A DNA stretch of 38,495 nt, from contig JBAXXI010000004.1 in NCBI GenBank assembly GCA_037127955.1, forward strand, positions 1 to 38,495. Direction: 5' to 3'. The translations under genes and the position numbers were made by a program. This stretch comes from Candidatus Berkelbacteria bacterium (GTDB lineage: Bacteria > Patescibacteriota > UBA1384 > UBA12157). This document shows, in pieces, positions 2,782 to 37,307 of this stretch; position 1 is the stretch's first letter; each line of letters begins with the position of its first letter. The notes under the pieces are model-generated. The model was not told the DNA's origin and searched no databases. It saw only the letters and a program-made list of their open reading frames with translations.

Positions 2782-2850
2782 CATATGTTTCAATCATAAA
2801 ACACCCGAAAGGGATGTACCTGACAATTGAGTCAAAAAAAGGGGATAAGT

Positions 2851-3258
2851 ATGTCTGTAGACATAAACGAAGTAGCGAAAGCAATCCAGGAAAGCAAAGA
2901 AGTAATTTTCTTTGGTCGAAGTTTCATTACGGCCGAATTTGCCCAGGTGATGTCAATCGGTGAAGACGGAAAAGGGTTGACTGGGAGAATTGGTGTTACA
3001 TTTTACCTAAAGACAGCTGGCGTCAATTTTACCACTGCGGCCCAACTTTTTCCTAATAAAAAATTTGTAGATGGAAAAGTTAAGAATGAAATTGCCGAAA
3101 GTTGGGATCAGTTAGGTTCCTTTAATGCGTTAGACATGAGAACGTGGTGTAAACTTGCGAATGTTCTTGGAAAGACAGTCCACTATTATGTGGATATTTC
3201 CGGTGGTACGGGTTGCGAATACGCTAAAGTGGTGTCATTTTACCCGCAATCGGAATAA
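2851..3258 (+). CDS. Hypothetical protein (135 aa), no recognisable family
   Basis: The ORF is open from 2827 (TTG), but ATG 2851 follows the SD-like AAAGGGGA at about 2838-2845. It is bracketed by its own promoter (2753-2781) and terminator (3272-3298). No TM segment or signal peptide is evident. Confidence 0.6.
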   Translation: MSVDINEVAKAIQESKEVIFFGRSFITAEFAQVMSIGEDGKGLTGRIGVTFYLKTAGVNFTTAAQLFPNKKFVDGKVKNEIAESWDQLGSFNALDMRTWCKLANVLGKTVHYYVDISGGTGCEYAKVVSFYPQSE

Positions 3259-3402: not shown

Positions 3403-3702
3403 ATGTGCGATAAAAAAAATTGTACCAATCCGCTTTATTTTCATTCTAAGAGTCCAGATGGACTCAAGTTTTATCGAGAAAATTGTGGCCAGATTTTTCT
3501 TGTGCCTAAAGATAAAATCCAACTTGAGCGGTATGATGGTTACGGGGCAAATACTGAATGTAATCAATGTATAAACTATTTAACCTGTTGTGTCCCAAGT
3601 TATGATAATGGTTTTATCTTTCGTTGTGCTTGTTGTGGCAGGTTTTATCGACTTACCCTTTTGGACTTTATTCATATAGACGGTAAACCCGTCTGTGCCT
3701 AA
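3403..3702 (+). CDS. Small cysteine-rich protein (99 aa, 11 Cys), putative zinc-ribbon-like, unknown family
   Basis: Strong SD AGGAGG (3389-3394) 8 nt before the ATG. Cys patterns: CxxxxC, CxxC, CC, CxCC and a C-terminal Cys. Its own terminator follows. Confidence 0.6.
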   Translation: MCDKKNCTNPLYFHSKSPDGLKFYRENCGQIFLVPKDKIQLERYDGYGANTECNQCINYLTCCVPSYDNGFIFRCACCGRFYRLTLLDFIHIDGKPVCA

Positions 3703-3707
3703 CTTTC

Positions 3708-3734
3708 GAGGAGGTATTTTTGTACCTCCTTTTA
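3708..3734 (+). terminator. Rho-independent terminator
   Basis: GAGGAGGTA (3708-3716) / TACCTCCTT (3723-3731) with a T-rich tail. Confidence 0.65.
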
Positions 3735-3799
3735 ATTTATATTTGATTTGACAAAACTTTGATAATTTGCGAAATTAAAGATAGAAAATAAGACTTTTA

Positions 3800-3872
3800 G
3801 ACTTATAGATCTATAGTCGTTTAGATACAGTCTAAAATTTAAGCTACTATAAGTCTGTAGATCTAAAAGACT
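3800..3872 (+). promoter_or_regulatory. Operator-like pair of inverted repeats in the leader of the 3896 gene block
   Basis: The 8-bp palindrome TAGATCTA occurs twice (3806-3813 and 3858-3865, 52 bp apart). The first is flanked by GACT...AGTC words and the second by AGTCT...AGACT. AGACT/AGTCT words occur at 3791, 3799, 3829, 3852, 3868 and 3876. The region lies between TTGACA at 3748-3753 and the SD AGGAGG at 3884-3889. Confidence 0.4.
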
Positions 3873-3895
3873 ATAAGACTATTAGGAGGTTTTGA

Positions 3896-4867
3896 ATGAA
3901 CGCAGCGGTTATTGGAATTGGAAATATGGGTAAGCATCATGCTCGAAATTATTCGGAGATTCAAGATGTGGATCTCGTCGCAGTGGCTGATCTAAATGAA
4001 GAATTAGGTCAAGAAACCGCTGAACGGTTTGGTTGTAAGTACTATAAAAATTATCAAGAAATGCTTGATAATGAAAAAATTGATGTGATTACAATTGCCG
4101 TGCCAACCAAGTATCACAAGGATGTGGCTTTGGCTTGTATTGAAAAAGGCATCAATATTTTACTTGAAAAACCAATTGCGGCCACAGTCGAAGAGGCTAA
4201 AGAGGTGGTGACGGCGGCTAAAGCTAAAAATGTTAAATTCACAGTTGGTCATATTGAGCGTTTTAATCCAGCCGTGATTAAGTTAAAAGAATTGATTGAT
4301 AAGGGTGAACTAGGCGATATTGTCTCGATTCGAAATACTCGTATCGGGCCAATGCCAACGCAAATTAAAGATGCCAACGTGGTCATCGACATTGGTGTCC
4401 ACGATATTGACTTGATTAACTGGATGTTGGGTAAGTTGCCAACCGAAATTATGGCTACTGGCGGTAATGCTTTGAATAAAATCCGTCAGGATTATGTCGA
4501 CGTTTTCTTAAAATACGGCAATGTTTCCGGGGCAGTTCAAGCTAACTGGATTACACCAGCTAAGGTTCGTCGTATGTCGGTTTGCGGAACTAAGGCTTAT
4601 GTTGAATTAAACTTTATTACTCAGGAATTAGTGCTTTATGAAACCAAATATTCACTAGAGTACGATAATTTTGGTGAATTTATCATTAAATTTGGTGAGC
4701 CAAAAGAAGGTGAATTAATCGCGGTTGACAATATTGAACCTTTAAATGCGGAAATTTGTGCTTTTATCAAAGCGATTAAGGAAGATACTAGACCAGTAAT
4801 GACCGCGGATGAAGCGATTGAGGCTTTGGATGTAGCCTGTAAAGTCGACACGATGGTTAGAGGATAA
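3896..4867 (+). CDS. Gfo/Idh/MocA-family NAD-dependent oxidoreductase; by context a WlbA/WbpB-type UDP-HexNAc(A) 3-dehydrogenase
   Basis: N-terminal Rossmann motif AAVIGIGNMGKHHARN, an EKP motif (LLEKPIA), 323 aa. Immediately upstream of WbpD-like and WbpE-like genes. Confidence 0.7.
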   Translation: MNAAVIGIGNMGKHHARNYSEIQDVDLVAVADLNEELGQETAERFGCKYYKNYQEMLDNEKIDVITIAVPTKYHKDVALACIEKGINILLEKPIAATVEEAKEVVTAAKAKNVKFTVGHIERFNPAVIKLKELIDKGELGDIVSIRNTRIGPMPTQIKDANVVIDIGVHDIDLINWMLGKLPTEIMATGGNALNKIRQDYVDVFLKYGNVSGAVQANWITPAKVRRMSVCGTKAYVELNFITQELVLYETKYSLEYDNFGEFIIKFGEPKEGELIAVDNIEPLNAEICAFIKAIKEDTRPVMTADEAIEALDVACKVDTMVRG

Positions 4868-4871
4868 AATT

Positions 4872-4954
4872 AATTCTCAATTTTCAATTCTCAATTTCCA
4901 ATTAATTATTCAATTGGGAGCTAAATGGGAACTGAAAACTGGGAACTGGAAACT
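4872..4954 (+). repeat. Two arrays of heptad repeats forming a long imperfect dyad
   Basis: AATTYYC x4 (4872-4899) and GRRAACT x4 (4927-4954, reverse complement AGTTYYC). An apical stem CCAATT (4898-4903) / AATTGG (4912-4917) lies between the arrays. Confidence 0.6.
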
Positions 4955-4964
4955 TTGAGGGATT

Positions 4965-16203: not shown

Positions 16204-17247
16204 ATGGCAGATAAAGTTGAAGTAAATCCAAAAATTTCCTCAGAAAAATGGATCAAATTTGTAGAAAATCATCCTGATGGCACAATTTATCATTTACCAA
16301 GTTGGCAAAAAGTTTTAATTCAAGCACTAGGTTACGAACCATATTATTTGTTCTGTTTTGGTCCAGATCGCGAGATTAAAGGATTATTGCCCTTGGTGAC
16401 GATTAAAAGTTTAGTGACCGGCAATCGATTGTTAGCTTTGCCTTTTTCTTATATCTGTAGTCCATTGGCGATCAATACTCAGGTTGAGCAAGCTTTAATT
16501 TCTAAAGCCAAGGAACTACAAAAACAAACAAAATCAAGTTATTTAGAAATCAGGATTATCGAGCCAAAAAAATATGATATGACTGAAAGTCATTATTTCT
16601 CAACTTGTCAGATAGATTTATCTTTAACTGTGGAAGAAATTTGGAAAAAATTAGATAAAGGAAGTGTACGCTGGGCTATCAATAAGGCTAAAAAAGATGG
16701 TGTCGAAGTAGTGAAAGTGAATAGCTTCGAAGATTTTAGGTCTTATCATGATTTAAACCAGGTGACCAAGAGAAATTTGGGTGTGCCAGCCCACCCGATG
16801 AAGTTTTTCGAAAATATTTATCAGGAAATGCCACAAAATGTTGATATTTATTTTGCTAAATATAAAGGAAAAATCATTGCTGGTATTTTTAACCTAGTAT
16901 TTAAGGATACGATTATTAACGCTTATGGAGCTTCGAATAAAAAATTCTTAAAATATCATCCAAATAATTTATTAGCTTGGCAGGCAATCGAGGATGGTTG
17001 TAAAAATGGTTATAAATATTTTGATTTTGGCCGAGTGGGCCAAGATAATAATGAATTATTGAATTTTAAAAAACGTTGGGGTGGTCAAGAAAAGCAGCTT
17101 TATTATTATTTTTACCCTGAAAAACCCCAATCAATCTCCATCAATCGGGGTAGTCTAAAATATAAAATTGCCAATAAACTTTGGCAAAAATTACCCATAT
17201 TCATCAGTCGACCACTGAGTAATATATTATTTAAGCATTTTGATTAA
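16204..17247 (+). CDS. FemAB-like / GNAT (Acetyltransf_6-type) acyl- or aminoacyl-transferase
   Basis: YHLPSWQKVL near the N-terminus. C-terminal NNLLAWQAIEDGCKNGYKYFDFGRV...FKKRWGG is typical of the FemAB-family fold. Confidence 0.65.
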   Translation: MADKVEVNPKISSEKWIKFVENHPDGTIYHLPSWQKVLIQALGYEPYYLFCFGPDREIKGLLPLVTIKSLVTGNRLLALPFSYICSPLAINTQVEQALISKAKELQKQTKSSYLEIRIIEPKKYDMTESHYFSTCQIDLSLTVEEIWKKLDKGSVRWAINKAKKDGVEVVKVNSFEDFRSYHDLNQVTKRNLGVPAHPMKFFENIYQEMPQNVDIYFAKYKGKIIAGIFNLVFKDTIINAYGASNKKFLKYHPNNLLAWQAIEDGCKNGYKYFDFGRVGQDNNELLNFKKRWGGQEKQLYYYFYPEKPQSISINRGSLKYKIANKLWQKLPIFISRPLSNILFKHFD

Positions 17248-17254
17248 GGTTTAT

Positions 17255-18295
17255 ATGCGAATATTGATTGATTTAAATCATCCGGCCCAGGTTCATTTTT
17301 TTAAGAATTTTATTTGGCAAATGAAAAAACAGGGTCACAAGGTTGTGGTTAGCGCTTACGATAAAGAAGTGGCTTTTAAGCTTTTGAAGTATTACAAAAT
17401 TGATTACGTTAATATGGGTAAATACAGCAAAAGTTCCTGGCGAAAACTGATTGATTTGGTTCGAAAAGACTGGAAATTGTTTTTTTTGGCCAGAAAATTT
17501 AACCCAGATATTTTGATGGGTCTTGGTTCGATTAATGCCGCACATATCGGGTGGATTTTGAATAAACCCAGTCTGATTTTTGATGACGACGAATATTCCT
17601 ACCCATTTTACAAGGCTTTTACTAACCATATTTATGGTTTTTCCGGGTTTAAAATCAAAGGGTCGAAAATTCAAAAAATTGCGGGGTTTAAGGAAATTGC
17701 TTATTTGCACTCTGATTATTTTAAGCCTGATCAGGCAGTTTTGAAGGAGTTGGACTGTGAAAAACAGGATTTCTTTATCATTCGATTAGTGGCTTGGCAA
17801 TCAGGTCATGATATCGGTAAAACAGGTTTGAGTGTTGAGTCAGTTATAAAATTAGTCGATATTTTAAAGAAAAAAGGTAAAGTTCTAATTTCTTCGGAAA
17901 AGCCGTTGCCAGTTGAATTATTGCCGTATGGTATAAAAATAGCGCCTGAGAGGCTCCATAGTGCCCTGTATTACGCCAAAATGTTGATCTGTGATTCTCA
18001 GACGATGGCCACTGAGGCGGCAGTTCTAGGCACACCTGTGGTTCGATGTAATTCTTGGGTTGGGGTGAATGATATGGGTAATTTTGTTGAGCTCGAGAAG
18101 AAATATGGTTTAATGTATTCTTTTAACAATGCTGACCTGGCGATTGATAAGGTTTGCGAGTTGTTGAAACAGCCTGATTTAAAGAAGGATTGGCAGGCCA
18201 AACAGGTTAAATTATTTACTGATAAGGTTAATGTAACAAAGAAGATGATTGAGTTAGTAGAAAAAATTGAAAAGGGTCATACCTTTACTTTCTAA
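17255..18295 (+). CDS. DUF354-family protein (GT-B / 2-epimerase-like fold, function unknown)
   Basis: The N-terminus MRILIDLNHPAQVHFFKNFIWQMKKQGHKV matches the characteristic DUF354 start. ATG 17255 follows AAGG; the ORF is open from TTG 17240. Confidence 0.7.
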   Translation: MRILIDLNHPAQVHFFKNFIWQMKKQGHKVVVSAYDKEVAFKLLKYYKIDYVNMGKYSKSSWRKLIDLVRKDWKLFFLARKFNPDILMGLGSINAAHIGWILNKPSLIFDDDEYSYPFYKAFTNHIYGFSGFKIKGSKIQKIAGFKEIAYLHSDYFKPDQAVLKELDCEKQDFFIIRLVAWQSGHDIGKTGLSVESVIKLVDILKKKGKVLISSEKPLPVELLPYGIKIAPERLHSALYYAKMLICDSQTMATEAAVLGTPVVRCNSWVGVNDMGNFVELEKKYGLMYSFNNADLAIDKVCELLKQPDLKKDWQAKQVKLFTDKVNVTKKMIELVEKIEKGHTFTF

Positions 18296-18361: not shown

Positions 18362-19201
18362 ATGTCGCAAATTGCTGAAAAAACTTATTACGAAATAAAG
18401 CCGCCAAAAGGTCTGGTCCATATTGATCTAAAAGAAATTTGGGCTTATCGAGAACTCTTATATATTTTTGTATGGCGTGATATCAAAGTCCGTTATAAGC
18501 AAACGGCGGTCGGGGTAATGTGGGCGATTTTTCAACCATTTTTTACCATGTTGATCTTTACAATCTTTTTTGGCCGTTTTGCTAAAATGCCTTCAGATGG
18601 AGTGCCTTACCCGATTTTTGTTTATGCTGGCCTTTTACTTTGGAATTATTTTTCCAATGCTTTAAGTAGTGCGAGTGATTCCTTGATTGTCAGTGAAGGT
18701 ATCATTAAAAAAGTTTATTTTCCAAGGTTAATTTTACCTTTATCAACTACAGTTACTCCGGTTTTTGACTTTTTCTTAGCCTTAGTTGTTCTCTTTGGTT
18801 TAATGATTTTTTACCATTTTACACCTCATTTTCTAGGTATTATTTTGATCCCTTTATTATTATTAATCTCTTTATTGAGTGCTTGGGGGCTTGGTGTATT
18901 TTTGGCATCGGTGAACGTTAAATACAGAGATGTTCGGTACATTTTGCCATTTTTTATTCAGATTATGTTGTTTTTAACACCAGTGATTTATCCGATCAGT
19001 ATCATACCAGCTAAATACCAATGGTTGATTTATTTAAACCCGATGGCTGGAGTGATTCAAACCGCTAGAACTACGCTTTTGGGTGGTGGCTCGGTTGATT
19101 GGCAAATTCTTTCTATGAGTTTTGGGATCAGTTTAATTTTGGTGATTGGTGGTATTTATTTCTTTAGAAAAACTGAGCGATTTTTCGCCGATATACTTTA
19201 A
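18362..19201 (+). CDS. wzm: ABC-2 type polysaccharide/teichoic-acid export permease (Wzm/TagG-like)
   Basis: 279 aa with about 6 TM segments. LLYIFVWRDIKVRYKQTAVGVMWAIFQPF is the ABC-2 signature region. SD GAGGT lies before the ATG. Confidence 0.85.
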   Translation: MSQIAEKTYYEIKPPKGLVHIDLKEIWAYRELLYIFVWRDIKVRYKQTAVGVMWAIFQPFFTMLIFTIFFGRFAKMPSDGVPYPIFVYAGLLLWNYFSNALSSASDSLIVSEGIIKKVYFPRLILPLSTTVTPVFDFFLALVVLFGLMIFYHFTPHFLGIILIPLLLLISLLSAWGLGVFLASVNVKYRDVRYILPFFIQIMLFLTPVIYPISIIPAKYQWLIYLNPMAGVIQTARTTLLGGGSVDWQILSMSFGISLILVIGGIYFFRKTERFFADIL

Positions 19202-19227
19202 TTAATGAATCAAATATTATAGGTTAG

Positions 19228-19246
19228 TGAATCGATCGCGGAAATT
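19228..19246 (+). repeat. Copy of the TGAATCG..CGCGGAAATT intergenic motif (wzm-wzt spacer)
   Basis: TGAATCGATCGCGGAAATT. It shares ATCGCGGAAATT with 29971-29982, 36128-36139 and 36195-36206. Confidence 0.6.
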
Positions 19247-19263
19247 TTAACTTTATTAAAATT

Positions 19264-20523
19264 ATGGCTAAGAAAAAATCAGAGACAATGATTAAAATTG
19301 AAAAGATTAGTAAGCGATATATGATTGGTCGCAATGAATCGTATTATTCTTTGCGCGATCAAATTGCCAATTTTTTTTCGTTTAAAAAAAGACCAAAATC
19401 AGAAGAATTTTGGGCGCTAAAAAATATTAATCTTGAGATTAAAAAAGGTGAAACAATCGGGATTATTGGTCGTAATGGGGCAGGCAAAAGTACTCTTTTA
19501 AAAGTTCTATCGCAAATTACGCCGCCAACCACCGGTCGAATTCAAATGCATGGCCGAGTAGCCTCATTGCTTGAGGTGGGGACTGGGTTTCATCCTGAAT
19601 TAACCGGCCGTGAGAATATTTTTCTTAACGGTGCAATTTTAGGCATGAGTCGGGCTGAAATTAAGCGTAAATTTGATGATATTGTGGCATTTGCTGAGAT
19701 TGGGAGTTTTCTTGATACACCAGTCAAAAAATACTCAAGTGGGATGTATGTTAGATTAGCTTTTGCGGTTGCGGCTCACCTTGAGCCAGAAATTTTAATC
19801 GTTGACGAGGTTTTGGCGGTTGGAGATGCTAAATTTCAGAAAAAAAGTTTAGGTAAAATGTCAGATATCGCTCATGAAGGGCGAACCGTTATTTTTGTCA
19901 GTCATAATATGGCTTCGATTAAAGCGCTTTGCTCTAGAGCGATTGTTTTAGAGCACGGTAAAAAAGTTTTTGATGGCGATACCTTAAGTGCTGTTGGTCG
20001 TTATGAAGGTCGGGATAAGGGAAAAAGATCAGTGATTGAATGGACAAAAACAACGGCGCCAAGGTTAAAATCTGCCAGATTATTAGAAGTTGGTATTTTA
20101 AGTGATAATCAAAACGTGGGTGTCGATCTTTCTAGTGAAAAACCAATTCAGGTTTATATTAAATTTGAAATGACTAGTGATGAAGATGAGATTGGTGCAA
20201 CTGTGGATTTGTTTAATGAGAACGGAGATGTTATTTTTAGTTCAATTGGTAACAATGAACCTGATTGGCATATGAAAAAAAGACCAAAAGGTGTTTATGT
20301 CAGTACTTGTGAGATTCCGGCCAATATTTTAAGAGATGGACCTTATTCTGTTTCGATTTTGCTTTGGTCTGGTTTTTATGAAGATAGTATTCGTGAAGAA
20401 GGAGTCTTAAATTTTAATATTCACGAGGAAGGCTTGATTCAGGGTGATTATCCTCGGGGTGGGGTCGGGATTATTAATCCATTGTTAAAATGGACATCAG
20501 TTAAAATAAAAGATAAAAAATAA
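19264..20523 (+). CDS. wzt: ABC exporter ATPase with C-terminal glycan-binding-type domain (Wzt/TagH-like)
   Basis: Walker A GRNGAGKST, signature YSSGMYVRLAFA, Walker B ILIVDE. An extension of about 160 aa (from about 20040) resembles Wzt C-terminal beta-sandwich domains. Alternative start at ATG 19288. Confidence 0.85.
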   Translation: MAKKKSETMIKIEKISKRYMIGRNESYYSLRDQIANFFSFKKRPKSEEFWALKNINLEIKKGETIGIIGRNGAGKSTLLKVLSQITPPTTGRIQMHGRVASLLEVGTGFHPELTGRENIFLNGAILGMSRAEIKRKFDDIVAFAEIGSFLDTPVKKYSSGMYVRLAFAVAAHLEPEILIVDEVLAVGDAKFQKKSLGKMSDIAHEGRTVIFVSHNMASIKALCSRAIVLEHGKKVFDGDTLSAVGRYEGRDKGKRSVIEWTKTTAPRLKSARLLEVGILSDNQNVGVDLSSEKPIQVYIKFEMTSDEDEIGATVDLFNENGDVIFSSIGNNEPDWHMKKRPKGVYVSTCEIPANILRDGPYSVSILLWSGFYEDSIREEGVLNFNIHEEGLIQGDYPRGGVGIINPLLKWTSVKIKDKK

Positions 20524-20541: not shown

Positions 20542-21273
20542 ATGGCTATACATTGGATTGATCCAGCGAAATTACTTGATACCGCTAAAAGCAAGTTTTT
20601 GCCAACCAATATTATTTTAGATATTTGTTGTGGTATTCACCCTCAAGAATACCAGAAAGCCTTGGTTCATATTTGTGCCGAGCCTTTTGACCAGTATGTC
20701 GATAAATTGCAAGAAAAAATTGCCTTGCGAGATGATCGTCAATTCGTTATTATTCGGGCTGGTTGGGAAGAAATCGTCAAATTAATGCCGCCGAAATCGG
20801 TTGATACAGTTTATTTATTAGATATTATTGAGCATTTACCAAAAGCACTCGGCCGTCGTTTACTTAAAAAAACCGAGCAAATTGCCAGAAAACAGGTTAT
20901 TACTTTTATGCCAATTGGTTTTATGCCAGAGGATTTTCCTGGTAAAGATGCTTGGGGTTTTGATGGTGGCCAGCGTCAAACTCATCGATCAGGTTGGGAG
21001 TTGAAAGATTTCGATAAGACCTGGGAAATTTATGCTTCAAAAAAGTTTCATCATGCTCAAGATTATGAGACTTCTAAAAAAATGTTTGGTGCTTTTTTTG
21101 CGGTTAAAACCATGCCTGGTGCTACCGAAGACAAGGTTCAAAATAAACTTTGGTTGGTCTGGAATACTATTGTTTTAAGCCCTGTTTTAAGCGAAATTTG
21201 TCTTTTTCCGTTAAATATGGCAATTAAATTATCAAGATTGATTCGTCAAATTAAAAAGAAATTAAAAGGATAA
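20542..21273 (+). CDS. Class I SAM-dependent methyltransferase-like protein, paralog 1
   Basis: ILDICCGIHPQ (motif I-like), VDTVYLLDIIEHLP. 243 aa with a hydrophobic C-terminal segment. Confidence 0.5.
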   Translation: MAIHWIDPAKLLDTAKSKFLPTNIILDICCGIHPQEYQKALVHICAEPFDQYVDKLQEKIALRDDRQFVIIRAGWEEIVKLMPPKSVDTVYLLDIIEHLPKALGRRLLKKTEQIARKQVITFMPIGFMPEDFPGKDAWGFDGGQRQTHRSGWELKDFDKTWEIYASKKFHHAQDYETSKKMFGAFFAVKTMPGATEDKVQNKLWLVWNTIVLSPVLSEICLFPLNMAIKLSRLIRQIKKKLKG

Positions 21274-21275
21274 AA

Positions 21276-22007
21276 ATGGCTATACATTGGACTGATCCAA
21301 AAAAATTACAAGAATTAGCTCAGAGCAAAATGGTGCCAGCCAATATTATTTTAGATATAGGCTGTGGAATTCAACCTCAGACTTATCAAAAAGCGATTGT
21401 TCATATTTGTGCTGAACCTTTCGGCCAATATGTTAAGAAGCTTCAAGAATTAGTAGCTAACCGAGTTGATCAACAGTTTGTAGTGATTAATGCGGATTGG
21501 GCCTCGGTCATCAAATTAATCCCGCCGAAATCAGTTGATTCAATTTATATTTTAGATGTGATTGAACATTTGCCTAAGGCTGAAGGTCGAAGATTGCTCA
21601 AACAAACCGAGAAATTAGCTCGTAAACAAATTATTCTTTTTACTCCGGTTGGTTTTATGCCACAGCATTGTGTTGGCAAGGATGCTTGGGGTTTAGGTGG
21701 AGTTCAAAATCAAGAGCATTTATCTGGTTGGGAACCGAAAGAGTTTGATAAAACTTGGGATATTTATGCAGCTAAAAATTTCCATTTAGCTTGGGATTAT
21801 GAGGTTTCAAAAAAGAAATATGGTGCCTTTTTTGCTATTAAAAATATCGATAAAACTGTTAACCCTGTGGCTCTAAAATTATTTGAGGTTTGGAATACGG
21901 TTGTTTTAGATCTTAACTTGAGTTATTTTTGTTTATTACCGCTTCGATTTGCCGTTAAAATATCGAGATTGATTCGTCAGGCTAAAAAGAAATTAAGACG
22001 AAAGTAA
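21276..22007 (+). CDS. Class I SAM-dependent methyltransferase-like protein, paralog 2
   Basis: Same length (243 aa) and collinear with the previous ORF: MAIHWTDP.., ILDIGCGIQPQ, VDSIYILDVIEHLP. Confidence 0.5.
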   Translation: MAIHWTDPKKLQELAQSKMVPANIILDIGCGIQPQTYQKAIVHICAEPFGQYVKKLQELVANRVDQQFVVINADWASVIKLIPPKSVDSIYILDVIEHLPKAEGRRLLKQTEKLARKQIILFTPVGFMPQHCVGKDAWGLGGVQNQEHLSGWEPKEFDKTWDIYAAKNFHLAWDYEVSKKKYGAFFAIKNIDKTVNPVALKLFEVWNTVVLDLNLSYFCLLPLRFAVKISRLIRQAKKKLRRK

Positions 22008-22016
22008 CCTAAAATC

Positions 22017-23204
22017 ATGAAAATTTTATTTGTAGCGATGGGTGAAAGCATCCATACTGAACGTTGGATTTCCCAAATTTCAGATCAAAATTGGGAGATT
22101 CATCTTGCTCCGAGTACTTATTCGAGTTCAAGACGTCGTCAGATTAAAAACGTATTTTTTCATACGGATTTTAAGGTAGTTAAAGATAAAAAATCTGGTT
22201 TAGCCAGATATACTGGTTTAAATTTGTTTGTTAACCGTATTATAACTTTGTTTAAAGTCTGTCGCGATAAAATTTGGCCTGATTACCGGGCTCAGCAACT
22301 AAATCGATTAATTAAACAAATTAAACCTGATATTATCCATTCTTTGGAGTTCCAGTCAGCCGGATATTTAGTCAGTCGGGCTAAGCAACTTTATGACAGT
22401 GGCCAGTTTCCAAAATGGATTGCAACTAACTGGGGTAATGATATTTATTTTTTTGCTCGATTTAAGGATCATCAAGCCAAAATTAAAACTTTACTAGAAA
22501 CTTGTGATTATTATTCTTGTGAATGTAATCGTGATGTTTGTTTGGCAAAAAATCATGGTTTTAAGGGTAAGGTTTTACCGGTCTATCCAAATACCGGCGG
22601 TTTTGATTTAAAAAAAGTTTGGTCGTGGCGTCAAAAAGGTTTAACCTCTCAACGAAGAATTATTTTAATCAAGGGTTACCATGGTATTTTTGGTCGGGCA
22701 CTTTTGGCTCTGAAGGCGTTAGAACAGTGTGTTGATGTTTTATCTGGTTATAAAATTGTTTTTTATTCGGTTGATAATAAATCTGTTTTGATTCCAGCGA
22801 TTAAAGATTTTACTTTGAAAACTGGTGTGCCGGTGGAAATCGTGCCTTATGGTTCATCGCATGAGAAAATTCTGAGAATGCATGGGAAAGCTAGAATTTC
22901 AATTGGTCTAAATGTCTCTGACGGAGTTAGCACAGCATTTTTAGAGGCCTTGGTGATGGGTTCTTTTCCGGTTCAATCAAATACGGCTTGTGTTGACGAA
23001 TGGATTGAAAATGGTCAGACTGGTATGATCGTACCTCCAGAAAATATTAAAAAAATCGCCCAGGCTATCAGATTAGCTTTAACCGATAATTCAATGGTGG
23101 ACGCAGGTGTTAAAAAAAACTGGCAAACAGCTAAAAAAAGGTTAGATTATCTTTTTCTGAAAAATAAAACCGTTAAGTTTTACAATGAAGTGGCCAAAAA
23201 TTGA
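22017..23204 (+). CDS. GT4-like glycosyltransferase, paralog A
   Basis: MKILFVAMGESIHTERW.., CDYYSCECNRDVCLAKN, and C-terminal STAFLEALVMGSFPVQSNTACVDEWIENGQTGMIV (E-x7-E region). Confidence 0.65.
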   Translation: MKILFVAMGESIHTERWISQISDQNWEIHLAPSTYSSSRRRQIKNVFFHTDFKVVKDKKSGLARYTGLNLFVNRIITLFKVCRDKIWPDYRAQQLNRLIKQIKPDIIHSLEFQSAGYLVSRAKQLYDSGQFPKWIATNWGNDIYFFARFKDHQAKIKTLLETCDYYSCECNRDVCLAKNHGFKGKVLPVYPNTGGFDLKKVWSWRQKGLTSQRRIILIKGYHGIFGRALLALKALEQCVDVLSGYKIVFYSVDNKSVLIPAIKDFTLKTGVPVEIVPYGSSHEKILRMHGKARISIGLNVSDGVSTAFLEALVMGSFPVQSNTACVDEWIENGQTGMIVPPENIKKIAQAIRLALTDNSMVDAGVKKNWQTAKKRLDYLFLKNKTVKFYNEVAKN

Positions 23205-24394: not shown

Positions 24395-25807
24395 ATGAAA
24401 AAAATCTTATTTGTAGCAAGAACAGAAAGTATCCATACCAGAAGATGGCTAGCCCAATTGGCTGGTCAAAATTGGGAAATTCATATTTTTCCGAGTACTA
24501 AATTTGATTTGTCTCGTTGGGAGATTAAGAATGCGATCATTCATTATGATCGATTTCCGCAAAAATACCGAAAAAATCAAAAAATCGCTAAAGAAAAATT
24601 GAGTTTTAAAGAATTATTAAAGCGGCGGTTTGATTTATTGATTTCGATTATTGGCCAGAGAATTAATCATGATTATCAAGTTGACCGTCTAAACCGAGTG
24701 ATTGATCAAATTAAGCCTGATCTAATCCACTCGATGGAGATTCAAAATGCCGGTTACTTGGTATCTGAAGCCAAAAAGAAATATAAAGGTCAATTTCCAG
24801 TTTGGTTGGCCACTAATTGGGGCGGGGATATCATGTTTTTTAGCCAGTGGCCGGAGCATAAAAGCAAGATTCAATCTGTTATAGACCAATGTGATTATTT
24901 TTCTTGTGAATGCTCTCGAGATGTCTGTTTGGCTAAAAATATGGGGTTGACAGGGAAAGCCTGGCCGGTTTTTCCGACTACTGGCGGGTTTGATTTAGCT
25001 AAAATTAAATCTTGGCGCAAACCTCTAAAACAAAGAAAAATGATTATGGTTAAGGGCTACCAAGGTTTATTTGGGCGGGCGGTTTTGGCACTTGAGGCTT
25101 TAGTAAAATGCCAAGATTTATTAACGGATTATCAAATTGTTGTTTATTCGGCTGAACCAGGCTCCTTAACCATTGACAAGGCTCAGGTATTAAGAAATAT
25201 TGGTATGGATGTCAAAATTTTACCACTTGAAACATCTCATGACAGGATATTAAAGTATCATGGTCAGGCTAGGTTTTCGATTGGTTTGAGTGTTAGTGAT
25301 GGTATTAGTACGTCGTTTTTGGAGGCTTTGGCCATGGGTTCTTTTCCGATTCAATCAAACACTTCTTGCGCCAATGAATGGGTGGAAAGTGGTAAAACAG
25401 GGATGATTGTGCCGACAGAAGATTTGCCGGTTATAATTAAGTCGATTAAAACTGCATTGACTGATGATAAATTATTGGTTGAATCAGCTCGGAAAAATTG
25501 GCAAACAGCAAAAAAAAGACTAGATTCGAAAGATTTAACCTTAAAAACGATTTCTTTGTACCAAGATATTTTTGATGCTAACATGAAAATAATTATGCCA
25601 AAAAGTCAGAATATTAAGAAATATTTTATCGAGGCTTTCCTGATTTTATGGATTTTAGGCACTTTTTTAGTTTGGTGGTTTTTGAGTGAAATTGTCGAAT
25701 CTCCTTGGGGTAAATTTGTACCAAAAAAAATTCGTCAAACTACCTTAAAGGTTGAAAAGTGGTTTTGGCCTGATTCTTGGAAAGATTATCTTTATATTCA
25801 AAAATGA
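24395..25807 (+). CDS. GT4-like glycosyltransferase, paralog B, with an extra C-terminal TM segment
   Basis: Collinear with 22017-23204: KILFVARTESIHTRRW.., CDYFSCECSRDVCLAKN, STSFLEALAMGSFPIQSNTSCANEWVESGKTGMIV. Adds a hydrophobic tail, IEAFLILWILGTFLVWWFL. Confidence 0.65.
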   Translation: MKKILFVARTESIHTRRWLAQLAGQNWEIHIFPSTKFDLSRWEIKNAIIHYDRFPQKYRKNQKIAKEKLSFKELLKRRFDLLISIIGQRINHDYQVDRLNRVIDQIKPDLIHSMEIQNAGYLVSEAKKKYKGQFPVWLATNWGGDIMFFSQWPEHKSKIQSVIDQCDYFSCECSRDVCLAKNMGLTGKAWPVFPTTGGFDLAKIKSWRKPLKQRKMIMVKGYQGLFGRAVLALEALVKCQDLLTDYQIVVYSAEPGSLTIDKAQVLRNIGMDVKILPLETSHDRILKYHGQARFSIGLSVSDGISTSFLEALAMGSFPIQSNTSCANEWVESGKTGMIVPTEDLPVIIKSIKTALTDDKLLVESARKNWQTAKKRLDSKDLTLKTISLYQDIFDANMKIIMPKSQNIKKYFIEAFLILWILGTFLVWWFLSEIVESPWGKFVPKKIRQTTLKVEKWFWPDSWKDYLYIQK

Positions 25808-29911: not shown

Positions 29912-30031
29912 ATGAAGGTAATGACAATCGTGGGGACTCGTCCGGAAATTATGGATTCATCTGCGGATGAATCGCGGAAATTTCCTCTAACCATAAATTA
30001 TATTAGCACGATCAAGAAAGGTTCATTATGA
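29912..30031 (+). other. 39-codon upstream ORF: a duplicated SD plus first 13 codons of the downstream 2-epimerase, fused to a repeat element
   Basis: Encodes MKVMTIVGTRPEI MDSSADESRKFPLTINYISTIKKGSL. Its TGA (30029-30031) overlaps the epimerase ATG (30028-30030). SD-like AAGGAA lies at 29899-29904. Confidence 0.6.
29951..29982 (+). repeat. Short copy of the ATGGATT-hairpin-AATCGCGGAAATT element
   Basis: ATGGATTCATC TGCG GATGAATC GCGGAAATT. 8-bp stem 29954-29961 / 29966-29973 with a tetraloop. Confidence 0.6.
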
Positions 30032-35162: not shown

Positions 35163-36119
35163 ATGCTTTTAAGAAAGAAAATTGCGGTAGTCGTTCCGGC
35201 CCATAATGAGGAGAAATTAATCGGTAAAGTTATCCAGACCATGCCGAATTTTGTCGATCTAATTATTATTGTTGATGATGCTAGTACTGATCAAACGGCG
35301 AAAAAAGTGCGCGAAGCGGCTAAGAAATTTAATAAAAAAGTTGAGCTAATTATCAATCGAAAAAATTTTGGTGTAGGTGGTGCGATTGTGATCGGATATG
35401 AATTTGCTCTAAAAAAGAAAATTGATTGTACGGCTGTCATGGCAGGGGATGCGCAAATGGATCCAACCGAGTTAAAAGATATTTGTTTGCCAGTAGTTAG
35501 GAATGAAGCAGAGTATGTTAAAGGTAACAGGTTAATTTATGGTAAGGCCTGGCAAATGATGCCAAAAATTCGTTATTTGGGAAATTCTGCCTTATCGCTT
35601 TTGACTAAAATCGCTTCTGGTTACTGGCATGTAGCCGATAGCCAAACTGGTTATGCAGCCATTTCTTATAAAGCCTTAAGCGAAATGAATGTTGGAAATC
35701 TGTACAAACAGTATGGTTTTCCTAATGATGTTTTGGTTCATTTAAACCTTATAAATGCTAGGGTGAAAGAGATTCCAATCAAACCAATATACCATACTGA
35801 TGGTAAATCTGGTATACGTATTTGGAAAGTTATCCCAACCATTTCCTGGTTATTAATTAGACGATTTTTTTGGCGATTAAAGAAAAAATATATTATTGAA
35901 GATTTTCATCCGTTAGTTTTTTTCTACTTTTTTTCTATGATTTTGACTGTTGTTGGTTTGTTTTTATTGGTCCGATTGATTAATATCATGGTTACAACTG
36001 GTCATACTCCACCAATGAATGCTTTAGCTTTGTTCTTTTGTTTGATAATGGCTCCTCAGTTCTCATTCTTTGCGATGTGGTTCGACATGGATTACAACAA
36101 AGACTTGAGAGTGAAATAG
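35163..36119 (+). CDS. Membrane-anchored GT2 glycosyltransferase, GtrB/DPM1-like (polyprenyl-phosphate sugar synthase candidate), paralog 1
   Basis: IAVVVPAHNEEKLI, IIVDDASTDQT, MAGDAQMDP. Two C-terminal TM segments. 318 aa. Confidence 0.65.
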   Translation: MLLRKKIAVVVPAHNEEKLIGKVIQTMPNFVDLIIIVDDASTDQTAKKVREAAKKFNKKVELIINRKNFGVGGAIVIGYEFALKKKIDCTAVMAGDAQMDPTELKDICLPVVRNEAEYVKGNRLIYGKAWQMMPKIRYLGNSALSLLTKIASGYWHVADSQTGYAAISYKALSEMNVGNLYKQYGFPNDVLVHLNLINARVKEIPIKPIYHTDGKSGIRIWKVIPTISWLLIRRFFWRLKKKYIIEDFHPLVFFYFFSMILTVVGLFLLVRLINIMVTTGHTPPMNALALFFCLIMAPQFSFFAMWFDMDYNKDLRVK

Positions 36120-36257
36120 TTGTTGTAATCGCGGAAATTCAGTATTCGGAATTATGGATTACAACAAAGACCTAAGAGTGAAATAGTTGTTGTAATCGCG
36201 GAAATTTTCAAAGTTTTGAAAAATATGGATTACAATAAGGATCTAAGAGTGAAATAA
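36087..36257 (+). repeat. Tandem repeat (67 bp, 71 bp and a partial third unit) of the last 10 codons of the GT2 gene plus hairpin and AATCGCGGAAATT
   Basis: Units start at 36087, 36154 and 36225, and each begins ATGGATTACAA. The first 53 bp of units 1 and 2 differ at 2 positions. 11-bp stems GATTACAACAA/TTGTTGTAATC lie at 36090-36100/36120-36130 and 36157-36167/36187-36197. Confidence 0.85.
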
Positions 36258-36353
36258 AACTTGTCTGATCGGAGCGCGGAATCACTGATAAAATTGTCAA
36301 AAAGAACTAAAACTGAGATAATAAATTAAATATAACTTATCGAGACTATTATT

Positions 36354-37307
36354 ATGATTAAAAACAAAACTATCGGCGTGGTTGTGCCGGCTCACAATGA
36401 AGAATTGTTAATTGCAGAAACTCTAAGTGGTATGCCAGATTTTGTTGATAAAATTATCGTTGTAAATGACGCTAGTACAGATAAGACCAAAGAGATTATT
36501 CTGCAGCAAAAGGATTTAAAAAACAGGATTGTTTTAGTTGATCATCTAAAAAACAAGGGTTTGGGCGCAAGTTTAGCAGATGGTTATTTAAAGGCTCTAG
36601 AGTTGAATATTGATTGTATTGCTGTGATGGCTGGCGATAATCAAATGGATCCAAATGATCTTGAAAGTATTGTGATGCCGATTGTTGATGAAAAAGTCGA
36701 TTATTCTAAAGGCAGCCGCTTGTTAGCGAAAGATGTGGCTAAAATAATGCCTAGATACCGTTTTATAGGTAATATTATTGCGACTTTCTTAACAAAATTT
36801 GCGACTGGTTATTGGCAGTTAGTCGATCCGCAGTGTGGCTATACGGCGATTTCAAATAAGGCTTTGGCTAAAATTGACATTGCTACCTTAAAAAAAGGTT
36901 ATGGCTATAACGCTGATATATTATTTAGATTGAATTTCTTTAATTTTAAGATTACAGATGTTGAGGTAAAACCGGTTTATGGGCGCGAAAAAAGTGGCAT
37001 TAAATTTTTTAGTTATACAATGGATGTTAGTTCATTTTTATTAAAATTGTTTTGGCGCCGTTTGAGTGAAAAATATTTCTTCCGTGATTTTAATCCGTTA
37101 GGTTTATTTTACCTATTTAGTTTTATCAATTTAATCTTGATTATTATCCCATTAACTATTAGATTCTTCATGCTATATTTCCAGACTCATTTGGCTCCGA
37201 GCACAACATTGATTATCTTATCTTTCTCTTTAATGATGGGATTTTTCTCGTTTGGTTTTGCTATATGGTTAGATATGGAATCGAATAAAGATTTGTTCGT
37301 GAGGTAA
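36354..37307 (+). CDS. Membrane-anchored GT2 glycosyltransferase, GtrB/DPM1-like, paralog 2
   Basis: IGVVVPAHNEELLI, IVVNDASTDKT, MAGDNQMDP, two C-terminal TM segments. The C-terminus LDMESNKDLFVR resembles FDMDYNKDLRVK of paralog 1. Confidence 0.65.
   Translation: MIKNKTIGVVVPAHNEELLIAETLSGMPDFVDKIIVVNDASTDKTKEIILQQKDLKNRIVLVDHLKNKGLGASLADGYLKALELNIDCIAVMAGDNQMDPNDLESIVMPIVDEKVDYSKGSRLLAKDVAKIMPRYRFIGNIIATFLTKFATGYWQLVDPQCGYTAISNKALAKIDIATLKKGYGYNADILFRLNFFNFKITDVEVKPVYGREKSGIKFFSYTMDVSSFLLKLFWRRLSEKYFFRDFNPLGLFYLFSFINLILIIIPLTIRFFMLYFQTHLAPSTTLIILSFSLMMGFFSFGFAIWLDMESNKDLFVR

Follow-up and report, generated by a model that had tools for sequence, protein, structure and literature searches.

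How do the genes of a bacterial surface-glycan locus come to be joined to one another, and what is a short motif doing that recurs just between them? This question is raised by a stretch of 38,495 nucleotides (nt) from a Candidatus Berkelbacteria bacterium (assembly GCA_037127955.1, contig JBAXXI010000004.1, positions 1 to 38,495 of the forward strand), called the window in the following. No other parts of bacterial genomes are exchanged as rapidly as surface-glycan loci, and bacteria belonging to the candidate phyla radiation (CPR)/Patescibacteria live attached to host cells; to our knowledge almost nothing is known about the diversification of surface-glycan loci in this group. The window is a polysaccharide locus of 35% G+C running on one strand. 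It encodes sugar-nucleotide enzymes, many glycosyltransferases, Wzx-like flippases, Wzm/Wzt, an FnlA-like dehydratase, a UDP-GlcNAc 2-epimerase, a DUF354 gene (17240-18295), and two tandem paralogues of glycosyltransferase family 2 (GT2), and 1742 of its 38495 nt are intergenic. The DNA is identical to ENA contig k141_1172946 and lies within the 228-kb contig CAZJOX010000001.1 of a metagenome-assembled genome obtained from anoxic lake water (GCA_964547745.1). Among named organisms, Candidatus Berkelbacteria have the closest homologues of the GT2 protein, from which it is inferred that the source is a CPR bacterium. Together with flanks of 17.6 kb the portion of the genome covered was 56 kb, and genome-wide copy counts were drawn from metagenome contigs. 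The relatives used for comparison are Berkelbacteria-like lineages with codes of the form L0xx and L1xx, of which the module-bearing ones are a small sample.

The motif proved to be part of a larger structured element, here termed the module, which is real, restricted to a subset of Berkelbacteria-like CPR lineages, and located at boundaries of glycan-biosynthesis genes. Its copies in the window are embedded in fragments of formerly functional genes, and the fragments are joined to the module ends at short identities. The motif itself, the 12-mer ATCGCGGAAATT, occurs in four exact copies (19235-19246, 29971-29982, 36128-36139, and 36195-36206), all on the + strand and all intergenic, with an expectation of 0.01 copies per window in dinucleotide shuffles, none of 100 shuffles reaching four. 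No copies with one mismatch are present in the window and matches with two mismatches are at chance level. An initial annotation of this DNA had called the 12-mer nonrandom, strictly intergenic, and the mark of a small hairpin-associated repeat family, and the exact copies as well as the stems of the module family bear this out. It had counted four spacers, however, where there are three: the copies at 36128 and 36195 both belong to a single 67-nt tandem repeat, as two of its units, which leaves three independent sites, A, B, and C. A degenerate copy GCGCGGAATCA is indeed present, at 36274-36284, one base away from where it had been placed.

The 12-mer is not free-standing. It takes in the foot of a first hairpin (hp1), the linker GCGGA, and the 5' arm of a second hairpin (hp2), which is A/T-rich and followed by ATRR. 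The module as a whole measures 45-70 nt and consists of the variable hp1, the linker G(C/T)(G/T)GA, hp2, and ATRR, the 12-mer being its best-conserved stretch. Common to 17 of 17 modules are GYKGA, a perfect hp2 stem of 5-9 bp with a loop of 3-12 nt, and the terminal ATRR, while the stems have at least ten different sequences. The arrangement of hp1, linker, and hp2 was predicted for every unit by RNAfold; site A is without an hp1 of the kind found at B and C. The stem lengths given previously were correct, 8 bp at site B (29954-61 with 29966-73) and 11 bp at site C (36090-100 with 36120-30, and a second copy). The heptamer ATGGATT, described as the 5' flank of the hairpin, is found at 29951, 36087, and 36154 as reported; as a terminus of the element it does not hold, since at 36087 it is coding sequence, Met-Asp-Tyr of the GT2 C-terminus. 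Neither hp2 nor the GT2-tail array, the all-synonymous signature, and the DUF354 remnant described below had been part of that annotation.

All three sites of the window are patches of gene debris. Site C is a tandem array of units of 67-71 nt which repeat the last 33 nt of the GT2 gene at 35163-36119. The C-terminus of the GT2 protein (...FAMWFDMDYNKDLRVK) is conserved in all homologues inspected, and the repeat begins exactly at the Met codon of its tail MDYNKDLRVK*. Each unit consists of the 33-nt coding tail with its stop codon, 11 nt complementary to the tail, GCGGA, hp2, and ATGG. The 11 complementary nt form hp1, with the stop codon in the loop, and the ATGG after hp2 opens the next tail copy. 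The gene behind the array (36354-37307, with a promoter-like region at 36294-36322) is the diverged tandem GT2 paralogue with the tail MESNKDLFVR; its own promoter-like site reads TTGTCA, 17 nt, TG-GATAAT.

The debris of site B comes from the epimerase gene starting at 30028, of which it copies the first 13 codons with six differences, all synonymous. The copy ends in ...CCGGAAATT/AT, after which ATG, hp1, GCGGA, and hp2 follow; the epimerase sequence CCGGAAATTAT mimics the hp2 3' arm plus AT, which provides microhomology at the join. The octamer CGGAAATT had been seen on both sides of this element and taken for a short direct duplication. Its positions, 29943 and 29975, are right, and the reading as a target-site duplication is wrong, the left copy being the Arg-Pro-Glu-Ile codons of the epimerase-start copy and the right one belonging to the motif. 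A 39-codon open reading frame (ORF) which runs from this copy through the module, and whose stop overlaps the true epimerase start codon (ATGA), has no family match and is most likely an annotation artefact, a spurious gene.

Site A is colinear with the 5' coding ends of DUF354 genes (M..KIIVDMNHPANVHFFKNFIWEMEKRGH; L071 position 3653, L081 position 1243, window position 17255). The local alignment score is 59 as compared to a maximum of 52 in 2000 dinucleotide shuffles (z about 6), and in a ranking of 779 gene starts DUF354 genes take ranks 2 to 4, the self-hit aside. In this alignment the 12-mer falls on the codons AAT CAT CCG GCT AAT GTT, and hp2 on the naturally palindromic CAC TTT TTT AAG AAC. 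No trace of DUF354 was found in site A at the protein level by tblastn, as the frame is destroyed. For site A an origin of the module sequence from the DUF354 5' end coding for NHPA(H/N)VHFFKN is likely on these alignments; for the other sites it would hold only by extension. That each module derived from DUF354 separately was rejected, as this holds statistically for site A only. Likewise rejected was a decayed epimerase 5' end (codons TRPEI) as the source of the motif, where the alignments were marginal (p 0.01-0.2) and epimerase starts not top-ranked among the gene starts; B and C also resemble a stretch inside a coding sequence of L070 (position 346), which at z about 2.6 was judged noise.

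The remnant also bears on the neighbouring transporter genes. The longest wzt ORF starts at the ATG directly 3' of hp2 (19264), while the gene caller and the database protein start at 19288 (411 amino acids). Since the stretch between the two, 19264-19287, is covered by the alignment with the DUF354 remnant, 19288 is probably the true start and the long one an artefact. The wzm gene is flanked by the full DUF354 gene on one side and the DUF354 5' remnant on the other. For Wzt no homologue exceeds 59% identity and the best matches come from non-CPR phyla, which suggests acquisition of the wzm/wzt ABC-transporter pair (window 18362-20523) from outside the lineage, and which also leaves the wzm-wzt spacer without comparators.

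The pattern of divergence tells how the fragments arose. Over nine tail copies 34 codon differences are synonymous and 3 nonsynonymous, as compared to about 31 nonsynonymous ones expected from neutral simulation (P<5e-5). The bias holds also in shortened tail copies which are untranslatable, and several copies are nearer to the native tails of other lineages than to their own. Synonymous-only divergence and closeness to foreign tails mean that the copies derive from functional alleles and have not drifted in place.

Arrays of GT2 tails with the hp1 3' arm, GCGGA, and hp2 are found 3' of the orthologous GT2 gene in five other lineages (GT2 amino acid identity 77% in L069, 81% in L070, 69% in L076, 70% in L158, and 64% in L081). 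Full tail copies in these arrays start with ATGG, shortened ones with AACAAG or AAAGAT, where the native tail reads ATAA, and ATRR is the module end in every case. In the arrays 2-6 nt are common to the module end and the tail at each join; over all junctions the ends of gene fragment and module share 2-10 nt, which are ATGG or ATAA where the fragment is a GT2 tail and CCGGAAATTAT where it is the epimerase. Modules without tails occur as well. In L069 one of them (L069c) fills the spacer between an epimerase and a glycosyltransferase gene and ends at the next start codon; relative to the orthologous spacer of the window it is an insertion of about 32 nt, with neither terminal inverted repeats nor a target-site duplication. 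In L081 a minus-strand module (-13321) lies in sense between a GT2 and a DUF2304 gene, fills the spacer from stop to start, and has no debris around it. In L077 a module lies in the 5' region of a divergent gene.

In total about 17 members were counted in 151 kb of close relatives, as compared to 5 pattern matches in one set of unrelated or distant loci (423 kb) and 9 in another (651 kb). All six independent loci carry the module in sense to the local genes, two of them on the minus strand of their locus. The 56 kb of the source genome hold 4-5 copies, all within 17 kb of one locus, and none is present in the 17.6 kb flanking the window. In the same metagenomes a near-identical C2-type unit, matching window 36197-36228, stands in tandem on another contig, which has at least two units, while A- and B-type units are unique. 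This second-contig locus (Logan, runs X1-X3) reads AAAATTATGG-CACTTCGTGC-GCGGAAATTTTCAAAGTTTTGAAAAATATGG-GTTTAGTCGTTTGACATCGC-GCGGAAAGAG, tandem modules whose inserts are not GT2 tails, at the same depth as the genome of the window. A survey of 185,579 representative genomes, a set which does not include the source organism, with the pattern ATGGATT-N(8-38)-AATCGCGGAAATT, proposed previously in similar form, yielded 60 single matches in unrelated taxa, which is chance level. A viral origin was dismissed after a scan of IMG/VR with the module pattern gave only coincidences in coding sequence, and in the literature on Berkelbacteria intergenic repeats nothing relevant was found.

Another finding was that the module is more conserved than neutral sites. 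The 25-mer GCGGAATTTCAGTATTCGGAAATAT is 84-100% identical between lineages in which the third codon positions of GT2 are only 40-59% identical; the adjacent tails differ where this 25-mer is conserved, and the two differences of the window copy are a compensatory pair. A compensatory change had been claimed before from a comparison of the stems of B and C, which are not homologous and hence give no such evidence. Alignment of the copies did bring out real covariation, only between the orthologous arrays of other lineages and not between B and C. In the Asp-Tyr register the window has an hp1 of GATTAC paired with GTAATC, and L070 and L081 have one of GACTAC paired with GTAGTC. A further change, from C-G to U-A, and a single G.U pair were also seen, and RNAalifold finds double compensatory changes in 2 of 11 pairs; the hp1 of other lineages uses other parts of the tail. 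The sense strand folds more stably in 10 of 14 modules. Taken together, these results favour a structure that is read on the sense strand over purely neutral debris.

To these observations belongs a reading to which we would give about an even chance: the module may be a conserved, structured junction element of the sense strand at which cassettes have repeatedly been joined by short-homology or unequal recombination. Between alleles that have otherwise diverged it would be a short island, nearly identical in sequence and prone to form hairpins, and it could serve as the preferred breakpoint or crossover point for cassette exchange between them. Short-homology (illegitimate) joins would come first, followed by unequal crossing-over within the resulting repeats, which would leave stacked scars; such a sequence of events would account for the stacked tail copies. 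The module probably marks sites of gene-cassette swapping. It probably also acts as a pair of RNA hairpins, and might be retained for a role in the polycistronic transcript, with one hairpin enclosing the upstream stop codon and one abutting the next ATG; that role would be in stability, processing, or translational coupling. Of the three roles suggested in the initial annotation, a recombination site at glycan-gene cassette junctions fits best, because each of the three sites is embedded in fragments of genes that were replaced or duplicated.

Several points weigh against this reading. Nine lineages with a comparable GT2 identity lack the module (L071, L075, L078, L079, L080, L157, L180, L181, and L182). 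A distribution as patchy as this could equally mean a horizontally moving element and, taken together with the high conservation, is what horizontal spread would also be expected to give. No joints and no copy-number or excision variants appeared in the contigs of four lake metagenomes, in which rare variants are hidden, and no recombination event was seen directly. Sites B and C alone are not statistically tied to DUF354 (p 0.1-0.9), so that the support for a common DUF354 descent is the shared 12-16-mer. As the genes in these loci all point the same way, the sense-strand bias is weak evidence. The strong conservation, loop included, hints at a specific trans-acting partner which the reading does not name, and the locus was absent from three RNA runs of a related sample.

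The alternatives differ in how much of this evidence they can take up. Considered unlikely is a module that works mainly as an RNA cis-regulatory element of the glycan operon, with the gene debris incidental. According to such an explanation hp1 encloses the upstream stop, hp2 pairs an A-rich, sometimes GGA-containing stretch just 5' of the next AUG, and a terminating ribosome or a binding protein sets stability, processing, or re-initiation. The sense-only orientation, the compensatory and G.U changes with the more stable sense strand, and the conservation far above that of neutral sites would all be in line with it, as would the two modules (L081 -13321 and L069c) that make up the whole spacer to the annotated start codon, the former without any debris. 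A hairpin enclosing the GT2 stop is present even in the module-less L078 (about 1573-1625; AAGATTTG with CAAATCTT), and in L077 and L080 the GT2 stop overlaps the start of the next gene, an epimerase (ATGA); from the enclosed stop or overlapping start the GT2 gene end seems generally coupled to what follows. In the arrays, however, the ATG behind hp2 opens just a 10-codon tail copy, or is missing in shortened units, the hp2 stems are weak A-U helices, and the module is absent from most related lineages with the same gene order, which makes it dispensable. Searches of Rfam gave no match at gathering threshold in the window and nothing credible at E<=1 around the three sites, and the missing RNA reads count here as well. 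A purely neutral origin is considered distinctly improbable. It would have the copies as functionless debris, a decayed DUF354 5' end and other gene fragments spread by recombination, with hairpins arising from palindromic HFFKN codons (CAT TTT TTT AAA AAT) and template-switch "quasi-palindrome" repair. Site A is demonstrably a DUF354 remnant with its hp2 aligned to HFFKN codons, gene fragments lie at all window sites, and the module of the third unit is already decayed; conservation of the 25-mer next to tails which differ, and hp2 stems which are perfect in all 17 modules in spite of their many sequences, speak against it.

The remaining two explanations call for a protein that recognizes the module. 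A small nonautonomous mobile or recombinase-targeted element of the REP/RAYT (repetitive extragenic palindromic sequence/REP-associated tyrosine transposase) or attC kind, with an enzyme encoded elsewhere in the genome, the GCGGA head beside the stem as recognition or cleavage site and ATRR as target, looks improbable. Patchy distribution with high conservation, junctions always at ATRR, the L069c insertion, the tandem C2-type unit on another contig, and lineage-specific variants shared by the copies within a genome, such as G(C/T)TGAATTTTTC in all three L081 copies, are what it would lead one to expect. Against it stand the low copy number with none in the flanks and the uniqueness of the A- and B-type units, the pattern count at chance level in the representative genomes, and the lack of a GTAG head and of attC R/L boxes. 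The same low copy number speaks against the earlier proposal of a REP- or MITE-like (miniature inverted-repeat transposable element) miniature, as does the comparison of filled (L069c) and empty (window) site, in which the MITE hallmarks of terminal inverted repeats and target-site duplication are absent; no transposase, Y1 (RAYT) transposases included, and no integrase is among the genes of the 56 kb covered. Highly improbable, finally, is a function in recruiting a DNA-binding regulator, be it a factor for processivity or antitermination or some other, in the manner of ops/JUMPstart or an operator. The locus is a long co-directional polysaccharide locus, the module is on the sense (nontemplate) strand, and two CGGAAWT half-sites lie about 15 nt apart; the copies are found at gene ends far into the locus and not in a leader, and the loop varies from 3 to 12 nt, which is incompatible with an operator of fixed spacing. 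Nor is the previously drawn analogy to ops and antiterminator sites supported: ops (GGCGGTAG) occurs in the window as one exact 8-mer inside coding DNA, with counts at chance level, two unassigned small ORFs are without a match to NGN/KOW or any other family, and no NusG-like gene was detected in the 56 kb.

Compared with known systems the module falls outside the REP, MITE, attC, ops, and Rfam families on their defining features and is a new variant among extragenic palindromes and recombination scars. With REP/BIME and REPIN-RAYT elements it shares the form of a short extragenic imperfect palindrome, often just after a stop codon, with a conserved 4-5-nt head beside the stem, lineage-specific sequence, and the possibility of tandem clusters, and for REP sequences effects on mRNA stability have been reported. 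Its head is GYKGA in 17 of 17 modules rather than GT[AG]G, however, its stems are A/T-rich and differ between copies of one genome, its units carry copies of coding tails, and there is just a handful of copies with no RAYT seen in the 56 kb. Elements integrating at gene ends (ISS repeats of SCCmec at the rlmH/orfX 3' end; islands in tRNA 3' ends) likewise leave stacked direct copies of a gene 3' end, with the frame kept, synonymous-only differences, and adjoining inverted repeats; in the module arrays just 34-38 nt separate the copies, shortened copies begin at different positions, and there is neither a recombinase nor an integrated element. Gene remnants, and scars of homology-facilitated illegitimate recombination, at the junctions of O-antigen and capsule loci offer a further parallel: they too lie in a glycan locus whose cassettes have been swapped, with pieces of gene 5' and 3' ends, microhomology at joins, and donor alleles from diverged lineages. 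The marks of such scars were found here in the 34:3 ratio of the GT2 tails, the six of six synonymous differences of the epimerase copy, and the recognizable DUF354 remnant. What differs is that one structured, selectively conserved module stands at the scars in several lineages and in ordered tandem arrays. Integron attC sites are likewise strand-specific hairpins at the 3' boundary of cassettes, conserved in structure and variable in sequence; the module has no R''/L''-L'/R' boxes, no integrase (in the 56 kb covered) or attI, much shorter hairpins, and ordinary operon genes, and the core GTTRRRY is absent at its stem feet. The intercistronic coupling or protection hairpins of MS2 (coat-replicase) and T4 (the gene 38 hairpin of Shine-Dalgarno sequence and AUG) resemble it in that hp1 encloses the upstream stop and hp2 pairs the stretch 5' of the ATG, but these are gene-specific and form no dispersed family with a conserved linker. 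The ops and JUMPstart elements, too, are short conserved noncoding motifs on the sense strand of glycan operons, with another sequence and a place in the leader instead of at internal gene junctions, and no RfaH/NusG paralogue was detected beside the module.

Some further candidates were tried and discarded. An intrinsic terminator scan flagged only an alternative stem at site B, with totals equal to those of shuffles; canonical intrinsic terminators are present elsewhere in the window, away from the modules. As a CRISPR array (clustered regularly interspaced short palindromic repeats) site C does not qualify, the "repeats" C1 and C2 differing strongly and not being uniform and the "spacers" being copies of one gene tail. 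For a diversity-generating retroelement the differences are not adenine-specific and no reverse transcriptase is present, and sigma-54 and sigma-70 promoter readings suffer from wrong hexamer spacing.

The structured spacer and the stacked, synonymously diverged gene ends in six lineages amount to a readable and unusually clear record of repeated cassette exchange between lineages, for which the module supplies a concrete candidate breakpoint or cis-element. For annotation it follows that the 39-amino-acid "gene" at 29912 and the long wzt start are probably scar artefacts. There is a small chance, in our estimation, that an as yet unseen protein, either a dedicated hairpin-binding recombinase or transposase or an RNA-binding regulator, recognizes the module, which would then define a new cassette-joining system of CPR glycan loci. 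Such a system would be integron- or REP/RAYT-like in function, unrelated to these in sequence, and would stack gene ends while swapping cassettes. If a dedicated enzyme or regulator does target the module, it would represent a new kind of cassette system; otherwise these are instructive but ordinary recombination scars around a conserved intercistronic hairpin. The coordinates of the features in the window are collected in Table 1.

Table 1. Modules and gene fragments at sites A, B, and C of the 38,495-nt window.
Feature	Position	Strand	Details
Site A, decayed 5' DUF354-family gene fragment	19205-19287	+	Between wzm (18362-19201) and the likely wzt ATG 19288; colinear with DUF354 5' ends
12-mer copy A (ATCGCGGAAATT)	19235-19246	+	Exact match
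Module core A	19238-19267	+	GCGGA 19238-42; hp2 5' arm AATTTTAA 19243-50; loop CTTTA; 3' arm TTAAAATT 19256-63; ATGG 19264-67
Site B, 39-nt copy of UDP-GlcNAc 2-epimerase gene 5' end (MKVMTIVGTRPEI)	29912-29950	+	6 nt different from real start at 30028, all synonymous
Module B, hp1 part	29951-29999	+	ATG; hp1 GATTCATC 29954-61, loop TGCG, GATGAATC 29966-73; 12-mer 29971-82
Module B, hp2 part	29951-29999	+	GCGGA 29974-78; hp2 AATTT 29979-83, 11-nt loop, AAATT 29995-99
39-codon ORF, epimerase fragment read through module B	29912-30031	+	Gene in public annotation (L001 4750-4869)
Native tail of GT2 gene 35163-36119 (MDYNKDLRVK*)	36087-36119	+	36090-36100 is hp1 5' arm; C-terminus conserved in homologues
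Module C1	36120-36153	+	hp1 3' arm TTGTTGTAATC 36120-30; GCGGA 36131-35; 12-mer 36128-39
Module C1 hp2	36136-36153	+	AATTC 36136-40, loop AGTATTCG, GAATT 36149-53
Unit 2 (tail copy and module C2)	36154-36224	+	Tail 36154-86, 2 nt different, synonymous; hp1 3' arm 36187-97; 12-mer 36195-206
Module C2 hp2	36205-36222	+	GCGGA 36198-202; TTTTCAA 36205-11, loop AGTT, TTGAAAA 36216-22
Unit 3 (tail copy and decayed module)	36225-36289	+	Tail 36225-57, 6 nt different, all synonymous, TAG to TAA; GCGCGGAATCA 36274-84

A few observations concern other parts of the locus. At its head lie two small ORFs (2827-3258, 143 amino acids; 3403-3702, 99 amino acids), each between its own promoter-like and terminator-like sites, which gave no Pfam or NCBIfam match. 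They are followed at 3703-3895 by a long stretch 5' of the operon starting at 3896, which contains a terminator and, at about 3750, a promoter-like TTGACA box; repeats of 8 nt (AGACTTAT / ACTATAAG, 3791-3882) build an extended imperfect palindrome in it, and a regulatory leader is possible. An inverted match of 3746-3777 in this leader promoter region to 36193-36224 of unit C2 (81% over 32 nt) is within the noise of the 329 inverted pairs of the window. The spacer between the GFO/IDH/MocA gene and the hexapeptide-transferase gene (4868-4964) contains two blocks of 7-nt tandem repeats, AATTYTC 4.6 times (4872-4903) and TGGRAAC 4.1 times (4926-4954). Duplicated genes are found further downstream: two tandem paralogous ORFs of 243 amino acids without a family (20542-22007) have a DNA identity of about 73%, and stretches of 70-74% identity are shared by two GT4-type glycosyltransferase genes (22017-23204 and 24395-25807).

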